Below are positions 4,637-29,513 of a DNA stretch of 64,000 nt, piece by piece. Each line of letters opens with the position of its first letter. Within the stretch, counting starts at the first letter, position 1. The translations under genes and the position numbers were made by a program. Origin of the DNA: an uncultured Alphaproteobacteria bacterium (GTDB lineage: Bacteria; Pseudomonadota; Alphaproteobacteria; RF32; CAG-239); NCBI GenBank assembly GCA_934271465.1, contig CAKQRQ010000007.1:14858-78857 (forward strand), given 5' to 3'. The notes below the pieces were generated by a model. It ran no database searches. It was not told the origin of the DNA and worked only from the letters and a program-made list of their open reading frames with translations.

Positions 4637-5611
4637 ATGAAAAATATATCGTTAATCGGCTGCGGCCGTTGGGGAACATTTTTGGGCTGGTATGCTGCCA
4701 ACTACAACAAAGCTGACGAAGTCTGGATGTATGATATTCCGACATCGCCCAATTTTATTGAACTCAAAAATACGCGCAAAAACCCGTATTTGTCCCTGAG
4801 TGATAATATGATTTTATTTGACAATCTGGCAAAAGTCCTTGAAAACGACTTTATCATTATCTCCATCGGATGCCAATATTTCAGAGGCCTTTGCAAAGAG
4901 CTCAATGCCTATAACCTCTCCGGAAAGACTTTCCTTTTGGCCATGAAAGGCCTTGAAGAGCCCTCCGGCGAACGGATGCTTGAGATTATGCGCACTGAAA
5001 TTAAACAGCCCATTCACATTGCCACCTTAGGCGGTCCCGGACATGTTCAGGATTATATGAAAGGCGTTCCTTCTGCTGCTGTTATTGACAGCGACGAAGA
5101 AGCAACCAAAGATTTCGTCGTCAATTTGATGTCTAGCTCGCTCATCCGTTTGTATTACGGAAACGATCTCATCGGCAACCAAATCGGCGCCGCAATGAAA
5201 AACGTTATAGGTTTGGCCGCCGGAATTTTGGATGGCTTGGAATGGTATGGACTCAAAGGCGCTTTAATGGCACGAGCACCGATTGAAGTCGGCCGCCTGA
5301 TTAAACACTTTGGCGGCAATCCTATGACGGCTTACGGTCTGTCCCACTTGGGCGACTATGAAGCAACTCTCTTTTCCAAAAACAGCCACAATCGTATGTT
5401 TGGCGAAAAATTTGCCCGCGGCGAAGATTTTGGAAAATTGGCCGAAGGCGTTCCGACACTCAAGGCTGTCAAACACCTGTCCGATACCTACAATATTGAT
5501 ATGCCTATTTCTCAAGCACTTTATCAAGCCATTTACGAAAAAGGCAACATCAAAGAAATTATCGGAAAATTATTTGAACGTTCGCTCAAAAAAGAATTTG
5601 ATAACATATAG
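4637..5611 (+). CDS. gpsA: NAD(P)H-dependent glycerol-3-phosphate dehydrogenase (GpsA family, divergent)
   Basis: The N-terminal Rossmann motif is IGCGRWGTFLG. GAAMKNVIGLAAGI matches the GpsA GAxKNVIAIGAG motif. A C-terminal GLSHLGDYEATLFSKNSHNRMFG matches GLGDLVLTCTxxxSRNRRFG. Confidence 0.75.
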   Translation: MKNISLIGCGRWGTFLGWYAANYNKADEVWMYDIPTSPNFIELKNTRKNPYLSLSDNMILFDNLAKVLENDFIIISIGCQYFRGLCKELNAYNLSGKTFLLAMKGLEEPSGERMLEIMRTEIKQPIHIATLGGPGHVQDYMKGVPSAAVIDSDEEATKDFVVNLMSSSLIRLYYGNDLIGNQIGAAMKNVIGLAAGILDGLEWYGLKGALMARAPIEVGRLIKHFGGNPMTAYGLSHLGDYEATLFSKNSHNRMFGEKFARGEDFGKLAEGVPTLKAVKHLSDTYNIDMPISQALYQAIYEKGNIKEIIGKLFERSLKKEFDNI

Positions 5612-6801: not shown

Positions 6802-7812
6802 ATGATTATCGGCATCCTCAAAGAGGCTTTTCCAAAAGAAACGCGCGTTGCGGCCACACCTCAAACAACCTCTGCCTTCAAAAAAGCCGGATTTGACATT
6901 TGGGTAGAGCAATCTGCAGGAATCAATGCCGGTTTTGATGACGCTTTCTTCAAACAAGCAGGCGCCCAAATCAAAAAAGACAAAAAAGAAATCTTAAGAA
7001 ATGCCGATATTATCCTTAAAATCAACGCCCCAGACAAAGATGAAGCCATCCTTTATAAACCCCAAACGGTTCTTATCGGCAATCTTCAAAATTTGACACC
7101 TCAGACTTTTGAAGAACTCAAAAAAAAGCTCATAACCTGCTTTGCGCTTGAAAAAATGCCGCGCATCTCCCGAGCTCAACCCTTTGATATTCTATCCTCC
7201 CAAAACAACCTTGCCGGTTATCAGGCTGTCATCAAAGCCGCTTCTTTATCCCAAAAATCTTTCCCGATGATGATTACTTCAGCTGGGACGCTTCCCCCGA
7301 TTAAAGTCCTTGTCACAGGCATTGGCGTTGCCGGACTTCAGGCCATTGCCACAGCCAAACGCCTCGGCGCAAAAGTCTACGCCTATGATATCCGAGAAGA
7401 GGCCAAAGAACAAAGCCAGTCATTAGGAGCCGTATTTATCGAAAACATCAAATCTTTTTTACCCGAAACCGATATATTAATAACATCAGCATTCAGCACC
7501 GGAAAAAAAGCCCCATTACTAATAAAAAAGACTGATATCGATTCTATGCCCTCAGGTGCCGTCCTCATAGATATGGCTGCCGAATTTGGCGGAAACATTG
7601 AAGGCTCAATCAATGGACAAACAATTTTCCATCAATCAAAATTAATTGACGGAAACAGCCGCCTCGAAACTGAAATTCCGATGTCTGCAAGCACTTTATT
7701 CGCAAATAACTTGTTAAACTTTGTCAATTTTTTGACTTCAAATGCAACAGACAAAATCTCCGCCGATATGACGGATCCGCTTCTCAAAGAAACCTGCATC
7801 ATGAAAGGATAA
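6802..7812 (+). CDS. pntAA: NAD(P) transhydrogenase subunit alpha part 1 (PntAA, dI domain)
   Basis: The alanine dehydrogenase/PNT N-domain ([18 protein letters not shown]) and the NAD-binding [18 protein letters not shown] motif are present. Two small downstream genes complete a split three-gene pnt. Confidence 0.85.
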
Positions 7813-10040: not shown

Positions 10041-10793
10041 TTACTTCTTCCCCCTGAGCAAAGCTTCCGGATGCCGCTCCAAATAATCCGCCAAATTTTG
10101 CATAGACTTGGCTGCACGGCTGACATTAATCGTAGCCTTATTAAAGTTGTCAAGAACTTCTCCCGACGCCGTTTTGTTTCGAGAAATCACGTTCGACACA
10201 TCGTTCAATACTTTATTTATTTTCGGCATGCTCTGATTTAAACCCTTAAAAAACTCGGCAAAATTTCTGACGCCTTCCTGCAAGGGTAATTTTTGCAACC
10301 CGCGCGACAATTCGCCGATTGGCGAAAGCGCCGTCGGAATTTCAACAGCCTTAGCATCCGCATGATACTTAATCGGCGTATCCGGCAGCATCTCAAGTTC
10401 AATCATCAGCTGTCCTGTAACATAACTCTGCGCCACCAACCGCGCCCTCAACCCTCTGCCAACCAATTCGTCCAAAACTTCCTGTCCTTTCAGATGGTTC
10501 ATCGCGGTAATTTTTTTATTTTGCATTCTTGCATAAACCGGAATACTGAAATTCATTTCTTCAGGATTGACAATAATATTAATCCGGCTGACCTCGCCGA
10601 TTTTTACCCCTTTCAAAACAACCGGCGACCCGACATTCAATCCCGTGATGGATTCTTCAAAATACATCACGACCTCGCTTCCTTTATTTCCGAAAATCTT
10701 ATTCTGAAGCAAAAATCCGACAATAAGCAAAAATCCGGCCACACCGGCAATCAAAAACAAACCGATAAGTTTGCGGTTAGGTTGTTTAGGCAT
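10041..10793 (-). CDS. MCE-domain substrate-binding protein (MlaD/PqiB-like)
   Basis: It has a single N-terminal TM helix and an MCE domain (GLNVGSPVVLKGVKIGEVSRI). Confidence 0.8.
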   Translation of the reverse strand: MPKQPNRKLIGLFLIAGVAGFLLIVGFLLQNKIFGNKGSEVVMYFEESITGLNVGSPVVLKGVKIGEVSRINIIVNPEEMNFSIPVYARMQNKKITAMNHLKGQEVLDELVGRGLRARLVAQSYVTGQLMIELEMLPDTPIKYHADAKAVEIPTALSPIGELSRGLQKLPLQEGVRNFAEFFKGLNQSMPKINKVLNDVSNVISRNKTASGEVLDNFNKATINVSRAAKSMQNLADYLERHPEALLRGKK

Positions 10794-17541: not shown

Positions 17542-19233
17542 TTAATCGCACGGCTCCGTAAAACTTTTTTTAAGCCCGTTTACCGTCACAATCGGCGCAT
17601 CAGGATTGACTGTCGTTAAAAATTTTCCGTCGGAAAAATTTTCAACCCCAGATATATCCTCTGACGCTTTATCTTTTGTACACCACATAATAAAGTTCGT
17701 AACACCGCCATATGGGTTTTCAGAATTAAAGCTAAAAACACTGTTCATAGAACTAAAAGTCAAATCTTTCAAATTAATAATCGTTACATCACGCCCATCT
17801 TCTGAAACAATAGCAACAACACCCACAGCCCTTTTGCTGCCGTCATAATCCTCGGCTTTTCCAAAAGTCTTGTCCTCATACATCACATCTCCAACTTTAG
17901 GCATTGTCCCATTCAGATCAAGATTCAACCTTAAAGAAAGTCTGATGACGCTGGAATAATTGTTCTTAAAATGGGTTGTCCTGTGACCATTTCCCGCATT
18001 AAAGCGCCAAGAACTACTTGAAGCGTTTTCAGAAGATGTCCAATAATATTGATTTTTAAAAGCCTCTGCCTCAACACCTTTAGCGGAAAGCTTATTCAAT
18101 GCCGCATTAATCAGATTCTTGTTATCGCCGTTGGCCCCTGTCGAACCTGCACCATCAATCATTTGTGTTATGTTTGTTCCGTAAAACTCCATCCACTCAC
18201 CGATTGACGGCAAATACCATTTTCCTTGGCCAAAATCTCCTGCCATGTCGCCAACATAAAACTGCATTGCCGCATAAGCGGCTAAAGCTTTTTCGCCAAG
18301 CTGAGCAACAACAGCTTTTGTATTCGCTTGACCATTATACAAACCATCTGGCCTTAATCCTGAGCCGCCGACAGATGCCGTTTTAACACCATCCACAAGC
18401 CCAACAACTCCATAAATATTCTTACCACCACCGGCAATCATTCCAACATTAGCAATCGATACATTATCCGTATGTGTTACAATTCCTGCCAATACTGTAT
18501 CTACTCCACCACTCAAATTAATTCGAACATTTCTAATTTTTGCCGACTTAGTCACCCATATTGCATCCAATTCATCAGCAATTTGACTTGACATATAAAT
18601 CGAAACATTTTCAATAACTGCGTTTGTTCCCTCAAGCCTGAGAGCTCGACAATAATCTTTATTATCATTTTGTATAATTACAACTTGACGCAAGCTCATA
18701 TTTTTACCATTAGAATAAATTGAATGAGCAAAAAGTTCTTCCGTTGCGCGATTTTTAAGCACTATATTTTCAAACGTTACACTATCGGCATTAGCAAATA
18801 AACCGTCCGTCTTAAGCACGTGACCGCCGCCGTTAATTATAACAGAAGAACCTCTAAATGTAAAAGAACTATTAAACACAACATCTTCCGCCAACACAAT
18901 TTTTGCATTATTGGTATTCAATAATTTTTTAAATTCATCAATCGTCGTGCTCTGCGTCACTTTAGTATAACCTTGCGCAACAAGCTCATCTACATTGTCC
19001 GTCAGAGTCACGCTGTCCGACAAATCAGCATAATCCAAATCCCCGCAGAAAACAGTATTATCATCTTTGATATTAAACGGGCACGGGAGCACATCTTTTT
19101 CAAAACAAGAGCATTGAGTGCGGGTCTGGGTATAGCCCAGTTCAGCACAACTTGGACGCTGCAAACAATCGGTTGAAGCGTAAGTATTTGAAATTACACA
19201 AAGTAAAAAAAGCAAAATAAAACCGTGTTTCAT
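17542..19233 (-). CDS. Secreted Cys-rich surface protein, paralog 1. It has a signal peptide, a Cys-rich N-module, a beta-helix-like repeat region, a DUF1566/Lcl-like W-x-L-P-S-x-x-E-W module and a C-terminal KxGDVMY...FAVSEDG module.
   Basis: The first ~70 aa are near-identical to the 27389..29275 ORF. The motifs GDFGQGKWYLPSIGEW and KVGDVMYEDK...GVVAIVSEDGRDVTIINLKDLTFSS are shared with that paralog. Repeated N-x-x-I-x-N segments suggest a parallel beta-helix. Confidence 0.7.
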   Translation of the reverse strand: MKHGFILLFLLCVISNTYASTDCLQRPSCAELGYTQTRTQCSCFEKDVLPCPFNIKDDNTVFCGDLDYADLSDSVTLTDNVDELVAQGYTKVTQSTTIDEFKKLLNTNNAKIVLAEDVVFNSSFTFRGSSVIINGGGHVLKTDGLFANADSVTFENIVLKNRATEELFAHSIYSNGKNMSLRQVVIIQNDNKDYCRALRLEGTNAVIENVSIYMSSQIADELDAIWVTKSAKIRNVRINLSGGVDTVLAGIVTHTDNVSIANVGMIAGGGKNIYGVVGLVDGVKTASVGGSGLRPDGLYNGQANTKAVVAQLGEKALAAYAAMQFYVGDMAGDFGQGKWYLPSIGEWMEFYGTNITQMIDGAGSTGANGDNKNLINAALNKLSAKGVEAEAFKNQYYWTSSENASSSSWRFNAGNGHRTTHFKNNYSSVIRLSLRLNLDLNGTMPKVGDVMYEDKTFGKAEDYDGSKRAVGVVAIVSEDGRDVTIINLKDLTFSSMNSVFSFNSENPYGGVTNFIMWCTKDKASEDISGVENFSDGKFLTTVNPDAPIVTVNGLKKSFTEPCD

Positions 19234-19450
19234 AAGATAAACCCCTTGGTTGACACATCGTTTCTAGCGTTTAAACCAACGTTTAAACGCTATAGTCATT
19301 TGCAAAAGATTTTGAAAAATGCACTTTTTAAGAGAATCGATAACACGTTGAAAAATAACAAAAAATTAAAATTATTGCTTTTTTAATAATTGGCTGATAT
19401 ACTAAAAATAATAGAGCGTTTAAACGTTGGTTTAAATGCTCTATTTTGTG
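19234..19450. promoter_or_regulatory. Candidate invertible promoter element, copy 1 (coordinates +/-1). Two 28 bp dif-like sites (11 bp arm, 6 bp spacer, 11 bp arm) lie in inverted orientation around a sigma70 promoter.
   Basis: Site a (~19264..19291) is TAGCGTTTAAA-CCAACG-TTTAAACGCTA. Site b (~19414..19443) is AGAGCGTTTAAA-CGTTGG-TTTAAATGCTCT. The arms are palindromic and the spacers are reverse-complementary. Between them, on the + strand, lies TTGCTT-17 nt-TGaTATACT (an extended -10), which points away from the minus-strand gene. Confidence 0.55.
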
Positions 19451-19552
19451 GTTAAAATGTTTTTGTTCAATTTCAATGAGGTAAGACTTAAAACATCATC
19501 AAAATTCACTCCTACGTTGTATAAATTAAGTCCAAAAACCAAACATAGGCAT

Positions 19553-19650
19553 CATCAAACCCAAGCGTAAACCTGCCCTCCCTTTTGTTATCCTCAAACC
19601 CGAGCGTAAGCCATTTCTCTCTTCCGTCATTCTCGTGCCCGAGCGTAAGC
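19553..19650. repeat. Three copies of an 11 bp motif CC[AC]AGCGTAA[AG]C at ~39 bp spacing, plus an imperfect palindrome (cattctcgtg...cacgggaatc)
   Basis: The three copies occur in aaacccaagcgtaaacc, aaacccgagcgtaagcc and gtgcccgagcgtaagcg. The region is non-coding, with no ORF of 60 aa or more. Confidence 0.4.
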
Positions 19651-19940
19651 GAGGAATAGACACGGGAATCCAGGAAACAAAGAAGCTTCTTTATTTCACC
19701 TTGATGTCCGGATCAAGTCCGAGTATGACAAATTTTTACTTTGCAACACAAAATAAAAAGTCTGATATTTGGAGCGGATAGAAACAAAAGCCGACTCAAA
19801 ATGTAAAAAAGGCGGCTAGCGTGCGCAAATAATAAGAACTGAGAAAACCGGCGACGGGAGTGTAGATAAGCCTACATGACCGAGCCGGTCTTCGATTGTT
19901 CTTTATTAGTTGCCAGCTAGACGCCTTTTTTACAGACTTT

Positions 19941-23372: not shown

Positions 23373-23447
23373 TGGGGTGTCGCCAAGTGGTAAGGCATCG
23401 GCTTTTGGTGCCGACATTCGTTGGTTCGAATCCAGCCACCCCAGCCA
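23373..23447 (+). tRNA. tRNA-Gln (TTG)
   Basis: The sequence TGGGGTGTCGCCAAGTGGTAAGGCATCGGCTTTTGGTGCCGACATTCGTTGGTTCGAATCCAGCCACCCCAGCCA has a U1-A72 pair, anticodon loop CTTTTGGT (UUG) and an encoded CCA. Confidence 0.9.
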
Positions 23448-23570
23448 CAGTTCAAAAATCGTCAGAAATGGCGATTTTTTCTTTATAAATCAAGTGTTTA
23501 AGCCAGTTCAAAGATTGAGCACTAAATATACATTACACCGGATAATCTTCGAACTACTTCTATCAAAAAT
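23441..23570. repeat. attL-like direct repeat. It covers the 3' end of tRNA-Gln plus ~125 bp downstream and is repeated at 25611..25740.
   Basis: It has about 75% identity over ~130 bp to 25611..25740. Shared segments include ccagccaYagttcaaaaatcg...gattttttctttataaatcaa...atcttcgaactactt. Confidence 0.65.
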
Positions 23571-23703
23571 TTAGCACAATCAAGGTGTTATGAAAATTGC
23601 TTCTTCCTTTTCTTAGTATTCAAAAGAGATCTTATTTTTGTTGCATTAAAAATTTTTAAAACTAATATAGGTTTATATTAAACCAAAAATAAAGGAACTA
23701 TAA

Positions 23704-24540
23704 ATGCCAGGAAAAACAATACAAATATTTTTACCAGATGGAAATCCTAAAGGTGTTAAAAAAGCTTCAATAACTACTGATAAAGTGGAAGTAATTCAAA
23801 TACCAAGAGCCTCCCTTTCTGAAAACAATAAATTGTTGGCGTTTAATGGTGTTTATATTTTAGTTGACAGTCTCAAAGTTGAAAAACCTGAAATTTATAT
23901 AGGTAAAGGTGATGTTAAAAGCAGGACATATTCTCACGATAACAAAAAAGATTTTTGGAATATGCTTTTTGCCATCAGATTAAAAGATGAAACCGGATTC
24001 AATGATGCTCATAACAGCTACCTTGAATACTACTTCGTAAAAAAATCTCATGATCTTAATCAAGCTATCATGAATGAAAACAAACAACTCCCAAAATGTC
24101 CTAATCTCACAGAAGAAATTCTTTCTGAATTATCCTATTATATTCAAACAATTGAAATTCTTTTATCAACATTAGGATTAAAATGTTTTCAGCCCTTGGA
24201 AAATCATGAGAAATCAGAAAAAGATATTTTTGTATGCACTGATAAATATAATAACATCGGTAAAGGGGAATATACTGAAGAAGGATTTTTATTATATAAA
24301 GGTTCCATCTGTAAACTAGAATTGCATCCAGGAACTGATAAGCTATCTCAACGAGATGAAATGATTGCTTCCGGATTATTGAAAAAACAAGGTGGCCATT
24401 ACATTTTGCAAGAAAATAAACTCTTTGCATCCGTATCTTCCGCAGCCGCTATTGTATTAGGTAGAAGAGCCAATGGTTGGCTAGAATGGAAAAACAGCGA
24501 AGGCAAAACTCTTGACGAATTAGAAAGAAAACATTCTTAA
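23704..24540 (+). CDS. GIY-YIG family nuclease with a C-terminal DUF4357-like domain
   Basis: NGVYILVD is followed 14 aa later by EIYIGKGDVKSRTYSH, giving the GIY...YIG core with a following Arg. Downstream acidic and Asn residues fit the motif. A ~60 aa C-terminal domain (ILQENKLFASVSSAAAIVLGRRANGWLEW) is of the type usually fused to such nucleases. Confidence 0.6.
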   Translation: MPGKTIQIFLPDGNPKGVKKASITTDKVEVIQIPRASLSENNKLLAFNGVYILVDSLKVEKPEIYIGKGDVKSRTYSHDNKKDFWNMLFAIRLKDETGFNDAHNSYLEYYFVKKSHDLNQAIMNENKQLPKCPNLTEEILSELSYYIQTIEILLSTLGLKCFQPLENHEKSEKDIFVCTDKYNNIGKGEYTEEGFLLYKGSICKLELHPGTDKLSQRDEMIASGLLKKQGGHYILQENKLFASVSSAAAIVLGRRANGWLEWKNSEGKTLDELERKHS

Positions 24541-24614
24541 GTTCAATATAAAGTGGATTTTATTGCCAAATTTTGTTATAAATGATTATATAACTGCCAT
24601 ATCTATTTTGGTCA

Positions 24615-25454
24615 TCAATAGTTTTTCTTAATCTTTTCAAAAAAAATAAGAGCTTCATCGCTAAGACCAACATTCTTTATATTATGAACAAATTTGAGAC
24701 CAGCATTAAATATTGAATCATCTTTTTTATAAAAATGTTGTAGCAACATATACATATAACGTGGTTCAATTATTTGTTGACCATCAAAATACTTACCACA
24801 GGTAATATGGTAAATTGAACTAGCAACAGCATCTGCAAGGGTTAATAAAACTTCATCTTCTTTTTCTTTAGTATAAATATTTTCTTCTTTAATATTACTA
24901 AGATAATATTTCCATTTTTCTTCTTTTTGCTTATCTCTTCTTACCTTATTGATGTAATGCTTAAATCCTTCCAATGATATAGATTTACTATTTTCAATAA
25001 TAAACAAAGTTTTATCTGGATCAATTTTATTGTAATAAATATATTTACTTATCCTTTCAAAAAGAAAAATAAGATTTTTATGATAATAACTTGTTATGTT
25101 TTTTGGATCATAAGCAAGTTCTCCTTTTTCATCTCTAAGTGTTCTTTTATTTGATATTGTAGCAAATGCTGTAAAATTTGTATTTTTGGATATTGTTTTA
25201 AGGTAAAATAACTTATCATAGTGCTTACTCATATCTGTAAAATGCAATTTTTTAAGTCCTAAAACAGATTTAATGTACGTCAGTTGTCCTTTAATATTTT
25301 CTATTTCTTTCTTCTCAACAAATACGGCACTAATATTTAAAAAATCTTCAGCACCATATCCTTTACCATCAGATAACTTTGTGTATGCGGCATTTCCACT
25401 TTCATCAATTAAAACAAAATATTCATATTGATCATAATTTATTACTTCGGTCAT
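24615..25454 (-). CDS. DUF3800-like protein
   Basis: The N-terminal YEYFVLIDESGN matches the [FY]-x-D-E-S-G signature characteristic of DUF3800. Its size is typical for that family. Confidence 0.5.
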   Translation of the reverse strand: MTEVINYDQYEYFVLIDESGNAAYTKLSDGKGYGAEDFLNISAVFVEKKEIENIKGQLTYIKSVLGLKKLHFTDMSKHYDKLFYLKTISKNTNFTAFATISNKRTLRDEKGELAYDPKNITSYYHKNLIFLFERISKYIYYNKIDPDKTLFIIENSKSISLEGFKHYINKVRRDKQKEEKWKYYLSNIKEENIYTKEKEDEVLLTLADAVASSIYHITCGKYFDGQQIIEPRYMYMLLQHFYKKDDSIFNAGLKFVHNIKNVGLSDEALIFFEKIKKNY

Positions 25455-25610
25455 TATTATTCCTTTATTATTATTTTCAGCAGTTACTTAGTAACTTAGG
25501 ATTTTATTTATCAAAACGCAAGCACCTAGCTTATTTTAAATTAACCCCTGTTTCTTGATACCCTGAAGTCAAAAAAATACTCAACCTAGTCCGCGGATTG
25601 CGAATTCACT

Positions 25611-25740
25611 CCAGCCATAGTTCAAAAATCGCCATTTTTGACGATTTTTTCTTTATAAATCAACAACTTAACCGAGTCCGAAAATTTATATCATTACAGG
25701 CTTAAATACGAATCATCTTCGAACTACTTTTTATAATATT
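25611..25740. repeat. attR-like direct repeat (partner of 23441..23570)
   Basis: See the left repeat. It includes a hairpin AAAAATCG-ccatttttga-CGATTTTTT whose loop is the reverse complement of the loop in the left copy. Confidence 0.65.
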
Positions 25741-26284
25741 CCTTATTTTTCAATAATTTAATTAAAGCCAACCTTTGGGGATAATCATTTATTCAAAGTC
25801 GGATTTGAAACTTTCTTAAAATGAAAGTTTTGGACATTGGCGACGATTTATTTTGCTGATGAAGAAGGTGTGTTATCAGCACAGGGACTGCCTATCCCGT
25901 CTGTGGCTCGGCTACTCCTATCCCATATCCGCCAGCTTGGACGGCTCCCCTCCTGCGGCTAGCTAATCATCAGCCAGTAAACAGCCTCCTTAAATCTGGA
26001 CAAGGCCTTTACGTGCGAGGAGTTAAAATCAGCACAGTTACCTTTAGTAAGAAGCCTAAACAAAAAGAGAAGTCGAAACCTCTCTTTTATAAAGAAACCT
26101 CCAGCCCTTAAGGGCAAGAGGTCTAAATATCATTTTTAAGTATTGAGATTTACTTTAAGCGGTAAGTCCCTTGTTCACCTTCGACTTTTTCAAGCAGATA
26201 AACTCATTATATAATATGCAGCATAACTTAAAGAACTAAATAATATATTTGAAAGTTATACAAACCTTACTAAATTACCGACAT

Positions 26285-26580
26285 TTTGAACTTTAGGATA
26301 TATACTTTCTTACATAGAACAAAACTTTTTATCTACAAGCGCACATCTTTTGAATATATCTCAAAGTTATATATTCTAAACATTTAGAATATATCCAAAG
26401 ATTATAAACAACTATATTTCATATTAATACATTTCAGAATATAGCTGTAAAGATAAAATTTATTATATACTTTAGCCTATATTATAGATACTTTTATCTA
26501 AAAAACAGCATTTTATAACATACCTGAAAGTTATATAAATAGCACCTTAGAATATATTCAAAAGATGTATATTAAAATTT
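26285..26580. repeat. Array of iteron-like short repeats. Class A is TTTAGAATATA(T). Class B is TTTTATCTA-N-A[AC]AG.
   Basis: There are at least 6 class A copies and 2 class B copies in about 300 bp of non-coding, ~25% GC DNA. Examples are catttagaatatatccaaag, cttttgaatatatctcaaag, tcagaatatagctgtaaag and ccttagaatatattcaaaag. Confidence 0.55.
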
Positions 26581-26771
26581 TTGAATAGAGAAGCTAAAAA
26601 GATTGAAAAGTTAATTTATTCAACTTAAGATTTTAATTATAGGAATCTTAACAATACAGCATTGTAAAATCACATCACAAAAAAAATAAAAATATGGAAA
26701 CATTTATAATGAAAGAAAGGTAATATTATGGGACATCAACTTTTTTAAAGGGTGGAGGGAATACAAAATTT

Positions 26772-27197
26772 ATGCTTGATATTTGGGCTAAAAGAGGAAT
26801 TATTTCATTACTAAAAGAGGCATATGAACGGGGCACTATTCTTTCAGGATTAAGTGCCGGTGCAAATTGTTGGTTTGATTGCTTTAGCTCAGACTCATTT
26901 TTAAGCGATGCGGATAAACAAGATTTCAATATTGCAAAAGAAAAATTAGCCATACTCAATGGACTGGGATATCTTAAAGGTGCGTTTTGTCCTCATTATT
27001 TGTTTGAAGCTTATAGACGCCCGGCATTTCTTTATCAAATTCAAAGGTTGAATATTACTGCTTATGGTGTAGATAATAATGTAGCTTTAGTCTTTGTTAA
27101 TGAAAAATTGAATAAAGTTATAAAAAGCCAACCTTTGGCTAAAGCGTTTAAAATTATATGTGAAAACGGAAAAATAATAGAAAAAGAAATTTATTAA
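26772..27197 (+). pseudogene. N-terminally truncated peptidase S51 (dipeptidase E-like) gene fragment
   Basis: ILSGLSAGANCWFD matches the S51 nucleophile elbow (G-x-S-A-G). It is only 141 aa against ~230 aa for intact S51 enzymes. A stop lies immediately upstream, and the fragment is flanked by repeat arrays. Confidence 0.5.
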
Positions 27198-27249
27198 TAG
27201 GGAATGCCTGTTAAAATTATCCCATAAGATTTTTTCAAATATCACCTTT

Positions 27250-27365
27250 CAGAAAAGATATACACTTTAGATTATACAACAAACCCTTTTATCTATACAG
27301 TTACAACTTTAGAATACGTCCTAAGGTTATATATATTAGACCTTTAGGTCATATCTTTTATATTC
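27250..27365. repeat. Second cluster of the same iteron-like repeats, on the other side of the S51 fragment
   Basis: It contains cactttagattataca, ccttttatctatacag and caactttagaatacgtcctaagg, matching repeat classes A and B. Confidence 0.5.
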
Positions 27366-27388
27366 AGATAATAAGCATCAAACAGCTT

Positions 27389-29275
27389 TCATTCAAATTC
27401 ACAACTACACCGACCGGATTTTTGAAGTGGTGGAACAATTTCGTTGATTTGCGTTATGCGCTGATAAGGTGCTAATGCCCACCTTATCTTTTGTGTCGTA
27501 TTACCGTAAGGATTTTCCGGATCAAAATTATCAGCCTTGTCCGTAGAGCTGAATGTCAAATCTCGCAACCCGATAATCTTAACCGTTTTACCGTCCTCTG
27601 AAACAGCAAAAACAATTCCGGCGGGCGTTCTGCTTCCGTCATACTTATCTGCCGAACCATAGGACTTATCCGTATACATCACGTCACCGATTTTAGGAAA
27701 TTCAGCCAATTGAGGGACATTTTGAACGATCAAAGCCACGCGGACATAGGCTGTTCCATGTTTCCATAGTTGCGGGTTTTCTCCCCATTTCAAATTTATC
27801 AATTTAATATAGTTAGAACCATCATAAGTTGTAAAATAAAGATGACTAGGCGTTGACTTATCCAAATCAAACGGTTGAGCTATTTCGCTGTCTGCAGCCT
27901 GTAATATACTCAATGAATTATTAATCCATGAAATATTGTTTCCAACCATTCCTTTTGTAAAACTCGTCATTTTAACTTTATTCGCGCCATAAATATCTGC
28001 CCATTCGCCGATGGCTGGAATATACCACTTTCCCTGTCCGAAATCTCCTGTCTTCTTCCCGACATAAAATTGGCTTGCAGCATAGGGCACAAGAGCATTT
28101 TTACCGATTTTTTCAACATTAAGATAAGTTACCCCATACCCATCATACAATTCTTTGGCATCCAGACACAATTCCTGACAATTTCCCAAAACACATTGCC
28201 CGCTTCCCAATTCATATCCTTCTACACAAGTTTTGCAGGAACAATCGTCATTATACGTCACGCAATTTTGTTGATAACACTGATCAAATTCACACGGACA
28301 GCCGCATGCCGATAAGAATCCGCCAATAAACTCCGACACATTCCACGCCAAAACACCGTCAACCATTCCGCCTCCATTGCGCCAACTTGTGACTTTTGAA
28401 GCTCCACCATACGGATTATCCATATCAAAATTATTAAGTGTATTATAATGACTAAAAGTCAAATTTCTTAATCCGATAAATTTAACATCTTTACCGCTGT
28501 CGGATACTGCAAAGATAATCCCGATAGGCGTTTTAGAGCTGTTATAAGCATCCGCCGAGCTAAAAATTTTATCCAAATATATCACATCGCCGATTTTAGG
28601 TTTTGTATCAACGATAGACAAGCCGCTCACACCTGAAACAACTCGCATATACCTTCCGTGCTCAAAGCTCCATTCCATTGAACGACGTCCTGTTTCGGGA
28701 TAAAATAACCATGTTCTTTGGCTGTCATTCAATGTTGATGACCAATACCCGCCAGTTTCCCATTCATCAGCTGCGGCGCCTTTGCTCTGCAGTGCCGAAA
28801 TAGAGCTATTAATCAGAGCTATATTTTCGCCGATTGCGCCTGATTTCTCCATTGCCGCTGTCATTTTATTAACATCTGTTCCATACAAATCCATCCATTC
28901 TCCGATAGACGGCAGCCACCATTTGCCTTGACCGAAATCCCCGCCTTTGTCGCCGATATAAAACAGGCTTGCCGCATAGGGTGCTAACATTCGGCTGCCC
29001 CAGCTTTCAACATACAACTTCGTATTGATTTCGCCATTATACAAAGACGATGTATCTTTGCACCTGCCTTTGCAATTCAAATCCCCGCAGAAAACAGTAT
29101 TATCATCTTTGATATTAAATGGGCAGGGAAGGACATCTTTTTCAAAACATGTGCATTGTTTACGCGTCTGAACATAGCCTAATTCTTCACAACTCGGTTT
29201 TTGCAAACAATCGGTTGAAGCGTAAGTGTTTGAAATTACACAAAATAAAAAAAGTAAAATAAAACCATATTTCAT
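27389..29275 (-). CDS. Secreted Cys-rich surface protein, paralog 2. It has a signal peptide and a Cys-rich N-module, then two tandem [DUF1566/Lcl-like W-x-[LI]-P-[SA]-I-G-E-W + KIGDV[MI]Y...FAVS[ED][DS]G] units separated by a Cys-rich EGF-like linker. I moved the start to MKYGFILLF.
   Basis: The N-terminal 70 aa are near-identical to paralog 1 (STDCLQ[KR]PSC[AE]ELGY...CPFNIKDDNTVFCGDL). GDFGQGKW[WY][LI]P[SA]IGEW occurs twice. PKIGDV[IM]Y.DK...G[IV][IV]FAVS[DE][SD]GK[DT]VK[FI]IGLR[ND]LTFS occurs twice. An RBS (aagggg) lies before the second Met. Confidence 0.7.
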   Translation of the reverse strand: MKYGFILLFLFCVISNTYASTDCLQKPSCEELGYVQTRKQCTCFEKDVLPCPFNIKDDNTVFCGDLNCKGRCKDTSSLYNGEINTKLYVESWGSRMLAPYAASLFYIGDKGGDFGQGKWWLPSIGEWMDLYGTDVNKMTAAMEKSGAIGENIALINSSISALQSKGAAADEWETGGYWSSTLNDSQRTWLFYPETGRRSMEWSFEHGRYMRVVSGVSGLSIVDTKPKIGDVIYLDKIFSSADAYNSSKTPIGIIFAVSDSGKDVKFIGLRNLTFSHYNTLNNFDMDNPYGGASKVTSWRNGGGMVDGVLAWNVSEFIGGFLSACGCPCEFDQCYQQNCVTYNDDCSCKTCVEGYELGSGQCVLGNCQELCLDAKELYDGYGVTYLNVEKIGKNALVPYAASQFYVGKKTGDFGQGKWYIPAIGEWADIYGANKVKMTSFTKGMVGNNISWINNSLSILQAADSEIAQPFDLDKSTPSHLYFTTYDGSNYIKLINLKWGENPQLWKHGTAYVRVALIVQNVPQLAEFPKIGDVMYTDKSYGSADKYDGSRTPAGIVFAVSEDGKTVKIIGLRDLTFSSTDKADNFDPENPYGNTTQKIRWALAPYQRITQINEIVPPLQKSGRCSCEFE

Positions 29276-29490
29276 GAGATAAGCCCCTTGGTTGACGCAT
29301 CGTTTATAGCGTTTAAACCAACGTTTAAACGCTATAGTCATGTACAAGGGATTTTGAAAAATGCACTTTTTAAGAGAATTGATAACGCATTGAAAAATAA
29401 TAAAAAATTAAAATTATTGCTTTTTTAATAATTGGCTGGTATACTCAAAACAATAGAGCGTTTAAACGTTGGTTTAAACGCTCTATTGCG
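29276..29490. promoter_or_regulatory. Candidate invertible promoter element, copy 2, about 90% identical to 19234..19450
   Basis: Site a is ATAGCGTTTAAA-CCAACG-TTTAAACGCTAT and site b is AGAGCGTTTAAA-CGTTGG-TTTAAACGCTCT. Between them on the + strand is TTGCTT-17-TGgTATACT, again pointing away from the minus-strand gene. Confidence 0.55.
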
Positions 29491-29513
29491 TTTTGTTGAT
29501 TTTCAATCACTTA

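Follow-up and report, generated by a model that had tools for sequence, protein, structure and literature searches.

A probable Mpi-type invertible promoter before secreted-protein genes in an uncultured gut alphaproteobacterium

Introduction

In a 64,000-nucleotide stretch of DNA from an uncultured alphaproteobacterium (contig CAKQRQ010000007.1, positions 14,858 to 78,857; hereafter the window), the gene of a secreted protein (gene A) is preceded by a short non-coding element in which two 28-bp sites lie in inverted orientation around a promoter that faces away from the gene. Such an arrangement raises the question of whether the promoter can be turned round to serve the gene, and if so, which kind of recombinase would turn it. 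Hence, we carried out a comparative analysis of the element, its neighbourhood and its relatives in metagenome contigs and in species-representative genomes. The element is probably an invertible promoter acting by site-specific recombination at these sites, and the window holds two copies of it, both with the promoter directed away from the gene (OFF). Judged from sequence, the best explanation would be an Mpi-type invertible promoter (inverton) positioned before members of a family of secreted Cys-rich/DUF1566-like proteins.

Thirteen regions are inverted by Mpi, a serine recombinase (PMC4747536), and Mpi systems have been known since 2003 (work cited in the same paper). Invertons in general are well catalogued across phyla (PMC11602134).

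Results

Two copies of a paired-site element in the window

A first-pass annotation of the window had described two 28-bp sites in inverted orientation around an outward-facing promoter, and re-reading of the coordinates bore this out. With at most one mismatch allowed, the window has four occurrences of the motif TTTAAAC-N4-GTTTAAA where 0.09 would be expected by chance; none of 100 shuffles reaches four. The gene-proximal site of copy A has 12-nt, perfectly palindromic arms around a 4-nt asymmetric centre and lies 149 bp, start to start, from the distal site. Since the only asymmetric parts, the 4-base centres CAAC and GTTG, are reverse-complementary, the two sites are true inverted repeats. 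The arms had been reported as perfect and identical in both sites, which is incorrect for the distal one, where a single G-to-A change is found in the outer arm. The 11-6-11 division proposed for the sites is one option only; 12-nt arms with a 4-nt centre, or a 12-2-12 parse (AGCGTTTAAACC-AA-CGTTTAAACGCT) plus flanks, can be read equally well.

The near-consensus sigma70 promoter on the + strand, TTGCTT, 17 nt and TGaTATACT, is as that annotation described it. A second full unit, which it had missed, occupies 29307-29483 in front of a paralogous gene (gene B); dozens more are present in related genomes. The two window copies are 87-100% identical, the promoter has the same orientation relative to its own gene in both, and 12 nt separate the end of the -10 element from the core of the distal site in each. 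Conservation of the DNA between the copies extends from within the coding region across the leader and both sites, ending just past the distal site.

A family of paired-site elements

A scan of metagenome contigs with the pattern GCRTTTAAAC-N4-GTTTAAAYGC returned 61 loci, and a scan of species-representative genomes with a relaxed pattern returned 40, mostly in gut metagenome-assembled genomes (MAGs) labelled Alphaproteobacteria. The exact CAAC form of the site had no match across the species-representative genomes, for which the relaxed pattern was required. Dozens of human-gut metagenome contigs carry the unit of paired sites plus promoter. In these contigs and in the alphaproteobacterial MAGs the sites of a pair are separated by 122-187 bp, in a few cases by 500-600 bp, and each pair adjoins the 5' end of a signal-peptide protein gene. 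Besides the two in the window, metagenome contigs of the same species or genus hold at least ten distinct loci, and MAG SIG59 (SUUZ01), with at least 12 exact site pairs as well as near-exact ones, holds about 20. SIG59 shares synteny with the window in the region of the tRNA synthetase and HAD genes, and the syntenic region contains a homologous Cys-rich/DUF1566-like gene behind a paired-site element. The same 24-bp site is found in Alphaproteobacteria, Bacteroidota, Kiritimatiellota and a termite-gut bacterium with pilin-like genes.

The promoter register is kept across the family. At 38 distinct related junctions, TAnnnT stands at exactly 17-nt spacing from the -35 element in 37, the end of the -10 element is 12-14 nt from the site core in 36, and TG is present at -15/-14 in 24.

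At one SIG59 locus (L071, 3628-3804) the promoter is aimed at a 297-aa membrane-protein-like open reading frame (ORF; MFFYIFIAILSPFF...) and not at a U-rich distal flank, the other side being a distal-type flank, which is unlike the rest of the family. A Kiritimatiellota MAG (L072) has two site pairs, at 5074-5166 and 7360-7450, with complementary centres (GGAC/GTCC and GACC/GGTC) and sites only about 70-80 bp apart.

Evidence for recombination at the sites

The 4-nt centres are exact reverse complements in 49 of 53 distinct pairs, even though the centre itself varies by locus and lineage (CAAC, CACC, CTCC, CATC, CAAG, CTTC, GTCC, GACC and GTAC, in both polarities). The four pairs that do not match include two with decayed partners (L021, L047) and one in direct orientation (L068). 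Complementarity within pairs, despite varying centres, implies that both ends have repeatedly changed in concert, as a requirement for matching centres in strand exchange would predict.

Both orientations of the interior were found among the paralogous loci of SIG59. Across about 17 of these loci the proximal and distal flanks are conserved and their orientation is fixed. Relative to at least ten of them, the interiors of L101 and L086 are inverted, with 84-95% identity as the reverse complement and about 68% in the forward direction. Both junctions of L101 and L086 are reciprocally exchanged, which places the breakpoints inside the sites. In these two loci the promoter is aimed through the proximal site at the leader, Shine-Dalgarno sequence and ATG, and in the other SIG59 loci through the distal site at the U-rich flank. 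At two further loci (L094 and L098) a pair of divergent paralogous genes flanks one element with one promoter, a layout that makes sense only as a toggle.

Further recombination products, bounded by the sites, have a single site. At L069 (2998) one site joins the distal flank to the leader, the interior being precisely gone, and L060 has one site in the fixed order promoter, site, leader and gene. In the direct-orientation pair L068 (5281/5463) the two centres are identical (CACC/CACC). At L113/L125 (~7680) the proximal site has collapsed to GAGCGTTTAAACGCTC and the gene has been swapped for the distal-type flank of another locus.

A 2.6-kb deletion (window 26877-29467) has removed gene B and most of its switch from five conspecific strains (L121, L123, L124, L128 and L129, at ~10583-10600). 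Its end falls precisely on the centre of distal site B, joining GCGTTTAAAC-CAAC of that site (29468-29475) to a pseudo-site, GCAATCAAAC-CAAC-AATTTGCACC, which lies at 26859-26882 on the minus strand inside a truncated peptidase-S51 ORF. The pseudo-site and distal site B have AAACCAAC in common, plus 8 of 10 left-arm bases. The deletion fits a rare recombinase error or, equally well, a microhomology-mediated deletion.

Orientation and loss at the window's own loci

Locus A is OFF in six of six assemblies (the window, L001-L003, L025 and L146), and locus B is OFF in all five contigs among the matches listed (the window, L111/L122 and L116/L126). A search for encoding contigs, using gene A, mscL and the tRNA synthetase, yielded OFF copies or deletions only; the same kind of search with the gene B product, from either start, gave no record. 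Seven conspecific contigs (L139-L145) lack the 5' 1.4 kb of gene A together with its switch and repeats (window 17836-19929). There, the sequence resumes at window position 17835, 16 nt past the tRNA-synthetase stop codon, and a remnant ORF of 94 aa is left; the breakpoints do not coincide with recombination sites. Locus B is deleted or replaced in other conspecific strains.

The interval from mscL to a tRNA gene (23373-23444), window 23373-29500, is an island slot whose content varies by strain, and gene B lies in it. In the window the slot also holds DUF4357 and DUF3800 genes and a peptidase-S51 fragment. Other strains have alternatives to this content (L121 10597-17400, L123 10597-19100 and L124): either a T5orf172/ResIII gene with an Eco57I-like methylase and an Mpi-family recombinase, or Fic, or a phage-like block with a 577-aa large serine recombinase, or radical-SAM/HxsD genes.

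Hairpins and transcription signals

The promoter had been described as firing into non-coding DNA. Its direction away from the gene stands, but it runs straight into the hairpin of the distal site and a U-rich tail. Distal site A folds as RNA into a 16-bp hairpin of -20 kcal/mol (z = -6.9), and with the U-rich tail after it scores as terminator-like in a scan; the hairpin of distal site B reaches -26 kcal/mol (z = -7.5). The hairpin of distal site A is terminator-like on both strands. On the opposite strand UAUUAUUUUUAG comes next, so transcription arriving from the upstream gene should be stopped as well. The proximal site forms the same hairpin, but here GAAACGAUGUGUCAACCAAGGGG and the start codon come after it, and the 5' untranslated region (UTR) of gene A has no U-tract. 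In the related loci, the 12-nt flanks downstream of the promoter contain a mean of 7.6 T at OFF-type junctions and 4.7 at ON-type junctions; the two ranges overlap, so that the terminator logic holds as a tendency rather than strictly.

Other transcription signals and targets were considered. No conserved gene-sense promoter was found in the interiors, and a TTTAAA-17-TATTAT inside the distal site is at chance level (16 found against 10 expected in the region). ORFs of 17-37 aa downstream of the distal sites were ruled out as targets of the outward promoter, as they are not conserved between loci.

The crossover core and candidate recombinases

The centre of the site, AAACCAACGTTTA (AAACC-AA-CGTTTA), is identical over 13 nt to pixR of the Escherichia coli element e14. 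The pix sites of e14 were recovered as an inverted repeat flanking the Pin-invertible segment, the right one being TTCTCCCAAACCAACGTTTATGAAAA. A Bacteroides MAG (L076) has GCATTTAAAC-GTCC-GTTTAA... and GCATTTAAAC-GGAC-GTTTAAATGC, 199 bp apart and directly 5' of a UpxZ-family gene, and the 10-nt arms of these sites (GCATTTAAAC-N4-GTTTAAATGC) are identical to those in the window. UpxZ genes are a hallmark of Bacteroides capsule loci. Capsule promoters of B. intestinalis (183-186 bp) are flanked by the inverted repeat GTTCGTTTAA, which overlaps the ARACGTTCGTN repeats of the B. fragilis promoters under the serine recombinase Mpi (PMC8375218). The composite published core ARACGTTCGTTTAA agrees with the window sequence AAACGTTGGTTTAA at 13 of 14 positions, a single central base being different.

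The recombinases found beside homologous paired-site elements are of the Mpi-family serine type only. Three termite-gut contigs, L059 (99-1865), L021 (3-1415) and L035 (125-1369), hold, in this order, a small recombinase gene, a type IV pilin-like gene (N_methyl motif) and a paired-site element with the conserved outward promoter-like motif atggtcaca..ttgaaaaaataatgtatatta; the element thus stands before the pilin-like gene, and the recombinase gene comes directly after it. The L059 enzyme scores 316 bits on the NCBIfam model NF009949 ('master DNA invertase Mpi family serine-type recombinase'; cut-off 272) and the truncated L021 enzyme 259 bits. These loci look like pilin invertons with an adjacent invertase gene.

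The window was searched for recombinases by Pfam on 20 ORFs, by inspection of the ORF list, by phmmer with E. coli FimB, FimE, XerD and PinE and the termite recombinase, and by tblastn, and all of these upheld the earlier statement that no recombinase gene is visible in it. For tyrosine recombinases, phmmer with E. coli FimB, FimE and XerD gave nothing at E < 0.4 in the window and about 130 related loci. Among the phmmer results, a weak match in L078 (E = 0.006) lacked Pfam support and was dropped.

An Mpi-family gene, scoring 273.6 bits and with 53% identity to the termite enzyme, is present in the mscL-tRNA island of conspecific contigs L121 and L124. Between this recombinase gene and a conserved 225-aa gene beside an Eco57I-like methylase there is an inverted repeat of a different sequence, CCACCATCTATTTG / CAAATAGATGGTG (L121 16278-16436; also in L124 and L131-L138). 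It encloses 111 bp containing TTGCAA-N17-TATAAT and probably represents an inverton in its own right, belonging to a mobile restriction-modification module. Recombinases of the L121 type are 82-95% identical across more than 120 protein clusters, and near-identical genes occur in lower-GC contigs with RepA_N, TetM-like and large-serine-recombinase genes, resembling mobile elements of Firmicutes. As it adjoins a different repeat and elsewhere stands in mobile-element contexts, the L121/L124 gene is not claimed as the cognate enzyme.

Features and neighbourhood

The coordinates of the features are collected in Table 1. The N-terminal 67 aa of proteins A and B, the Cys-rich leader, are 88% identical, and their bodies, of one or two modules with weak Pfam Lcl_C/DUF1566 matches, are 41-43% identical. 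Housekeeping neighbours in the window include a class II tRNA synthetase, nagA/nagB, mscL, nusG, rpoBC, tuf and fus. Window genes occur in Hadza and other stool assemblies. Rfam at the gathering threshold detected four tRNAs only in the window and no match at the switch element. Between the element of gene A and the tRNA-synthetase gene, window 19551-19660 consists of three tandem units of about 39 nt containing CCCRAGCGTAA, followed by a sequence (cgtcattctcgtgcccgagcgtaagcgagg) that resembles a small repetitive extragenic palindromic (REP)-like repeat. Repeats like these units swell the interiors of L094 and L098 to 485-556 bp.

Table 1. Coordinates of the two regulated genes and of the elements in front of them (window positions).
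Feature	Position	Strand	Description
Regulated gene A	17542..19233	-	563-aa secreted protein: signal peptide, Cys-rich leader, DUF1566/Lcl_C-like domain (weak Pfam Lcl_C match)
5' UTR of gene A	19234..19264	-	Shine-Dalgarno AAGGGG (CCCCTT on +, 19242-19247); kept in copy B
Gene-proximal recombination site A	19265-19292		TAGCGTTTAAAC-CAAC-GTTTAAACGCTA; putative crossover dinucleotide AA at 19278-19279
Interior A, putatively invertible	19293..19413		121 bp; OFF orientation; basis, homologous interiors both ways round in MAG SIG59
Promoter A, predicted sigma70 extended -10	19375..19403	+	TTGCTT (19375-19380), 17-nt spacer, TG (19395-19396), TATACT (19398-19403); directed away from gene A
Distal recombination site A	19414-19441		Core GAGCGTTTAAAC-GTTG-GTTTAAATGCTC; palindrome widened to 16-nt arms, 19410-19445
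U-rich tail 3' of distal hairpin A	19446..19460	+	Putative terminator of the OFF-state transcript
Regulated gene B	27389..29275	-	628-aa paralogue; leader as in A; two DUF1566-like modules
Gene-proximal recombination site B	29307..29334		TAGCGTTTAAAC-CAAC-GTTTAAACGCTA
Promoter B	29417..29445	+	TTGCTT, 17 nt, TGgTATACT; directed away from gene B
Distal recombination site B	29452..29487		Core 29456-29483, centre GTTG; perfect 16-nt arms; then tail GCGUUUUGUUGAUUUUC

Discussion

The proposal that the element is an invertible switch is supported by comparison, that is, by its architecture, the co-varying centres, the presence of both orientations in SIG59 and the two-gene toggles; switching at the window's own loci, which are all OFF, is the part of the proposal that did not find support. 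In the mechanism that we propose, a serine DNA invertase of the Mpi or Hin/Gin/Pin kind, encoded outside the window, would pair both sites, cut at the central dinucleotide, swap the half-sites and flip the interior. In the OFF state, transcription would start at about 19410, a few nucleotides before the distal site, and stop after about 45 nt at the hairpin and U-rich tail; with its internal U/A tracts the hairpin may block read-through from the upstream gene as well. In the ON state, the inverted promoter would read across the proximal hairpin, which has no U tail, into the 31-nt leader, the Shine-Dalgarno sequence and the gene. One or a few members of a variable surface- or secreted-protein family would thereby be expressed in a phase-variable manner.

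Several observations weigh against this proposal. The ON orientation of locus A or B was not found in any assembly examined; consensus assemblies give the majority state, however, and an all-OFF result neither shows nor excludes switching, so that the absence of ON copies says little about it. The SIG59 orientations differ between paralogous loci, and therefore prove inversion events and not their rate. No recombinase gene was found in the 64-kb window or in the alphaproteobacterial surroundings of related elements, about 700 kb in all, and the L121/L124 gene, given its mobile island and different repeat, may not be the cognate enzyme. With about 121 bp, the interior is short for a classical Fis/enhancer-dependent invertasome. 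Lastly, all four central positions co-vary, which a tyrosine recombinase with a longer overlap would also explain.

The last point bears on the class of the enzyme. The same switch could be driven by a tyrosine recombinase (Xer-, FimB- or Cre-like) that binds the 11-12-bp arms and exchanges strands across a 6-8-bp overlap; lox, FRT and dif have a similar layout of arms and spacer, and complementarity at all four central positions in 49 of the 53 pairs fits a requirement for identity across such a length. It is on account of this co-variation that we still allow for a tyrosine enzyme, as a distinctly unlikely alternative. The centre AAACC-NN-sGTTT is the hallmark of serine-invertase crossover sites, the identity to pixR extends over 13 nt and the match to the Bacteroides Mpi repeat over 13 of 14 positions, the linked recombinases are all Mpi-family serine enzymes, and phmmer with FimB, FimE and XerD detected no tyrosine recombinase in the window or the fetched related loci. 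For a dif-type site in particular, the copy number is wrong, with four sites in 64 kb and at least 24 in one MAG where dif is single-copy. The dif/Xer and tyrosine-recombinase analogy drawn in the first-pass annotation is thus contradicted by the multi-copy sites, the serine-type core and the linked enzymes, and is probably wrong; given an invertible promoter, a serine enzyme is clearly to be preferred over a tyrosine one.

Two other explanations were considered. In this strain the element may be a relic locked in one orientation, in which the palindromes act as bidirectional terminators, insulators or operators, the promoter yields a short abortive RNA and no cognate recombinase exists. Both loci being OFF in all assemblies examined, a window without a recombinase, a distal hairpin that scores as an intrinsic terminator, decayed or single-site relatives (L021, L060, L069 and L113) and the plain deletion of locus A in many strains are all in keeping with such a relic. 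Yet all four sites are intact, both B sites are perfect, the centres are still exactly matched and the near-consensus promoter stands in identical register in both copies, a degree of preservation that is unexpected for dead switches; moreover, the search for an enzyme in this genome covered 64 kb only. We regard a locked relic as unlikely. Far less probable is a miniature inverted-repeat transposable element (MITE) resembling Correia elements, with palindromic terminal repeats and an outward promoter, inserted 5' of genes either way round. The element is indeed small (about 175 bp) and multi-copy with terminal inverted repeats and an outward promoter, and contigs often break at it. However, conservation runs past both repeats into the distal flank, the leader and the 5' coding region, and therefore the duplicated unit is the locus and not the element. 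The window sequence has no target-site duplication flanking the element, neither empty sites nor insertions in unrelated contexts were seen, and a MITE would leave the concerted centres, the toggle architecture and the match to invertase crossover sites unexplained.

Returning to the invertible promoter, a wider and more tentative reading, which we consider possible but doubtful, is that the Mpi-type crossover site is a standard part used across phyla, which in its alphaproteobacterial version would have three roles and address-code centres. The site would serve as the recombination site, as the terminator or insulator of the OFF promoter and as the 5' stem-loop of the ON mRNA. The pair-matched variable centres would keep one master invertase from recombining different loci with each other. 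Neither a cross-phylum part, a triple role nor an address code is described for Mpi systems in the searchable papers. If the element is indeed an invertible promoter of the Mpi type, uncultured gut Alphaproteobacteria, which are widespread in non-industrial human guts, would phase-vary secreted DUF1566-like proteins by a master-invertase switch of the type known from Bacteroides capsules. The centre variants would offer a natural series for testing how serine invertases avoid recombination between loci, and the pattern GCRTTTAAAC-N4-GTTTAAAYGC, in inverted pairs 120-200 bp apart, a search signature for Mpi-type invertons in any phylum. For annotation, the elements would account for seemingly promoterless genes and for assembly breaks at their positions.

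Comparison with known systems

Searchable literature on the Mpi consensus, DUF1566 phase variation and alphaproteobacterial invertons contains no description of this family. Among known systems, Xer/dif has in common with the 28-bp site the general arm-spacer-arm layout and nothing more. It is a single-copy terminus site for dimer resolution, whereas the window has inverted pairs 5' of genes with a serine-invertase-type centre, and the dif arms (..GCGCATAA / TTATGTTAAAT) seem unlike GCGTTTAAAC. The fimS switch is similar in being a promoter-only invertible segment before a surface-structure gene, with ON/OFF logic; it differs in its length of 314 bp, its 9-bp non-palindromic repeats, its adjacent tyrosine recombinases FimB and FimE, and its single locus.

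The hix, gix, cix and pix sites resemble those in the window more closely, as they consist of two 12-bp inverted half-sites with a 2-bp core that sets orientation by its identity and asymmetry and a centre of AAACC-NN-GGTTT, although the outer half-site bases of pix differ from the GCGTTT of the window. Hin, Gin, Cin and Pin invert segments of 1-4 kb, with the invertase gene and a Fis-dependent enhancer inside or adjoining, usually once per replicon, whereas the window elements have a non-coding interior of about 121 bp and many copies, and no resolvase-family ORF is present in the window.

The Mpi invertons of Bacteroides are likewise short promoter segments between inverted repeats, with many switches per genome before surface-structure genes and the recombinase encoded elsewhere, and their repeat core is common to the window sites at 13 of 14 positions. 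The window version differs in its alphaproteobacterial host, in a sigma70 extended -10 promoter instead of the -7/-33 type, in an interior of 121 bp instead of a segment of 183-186 bp, and in serving single secreted-protein genes instead of polysaccharide operons. It differs further in a palindromic site of 28-36 bp that doubles as a predicted terminator hairpin and in a centre that varies by locus and species. The class is thus a known one, and what is distinctive is the set of alphaproteobacterial host, sigma70 promoter, short interior, palindromic sites doubling as hairpins and locus-specific centres.

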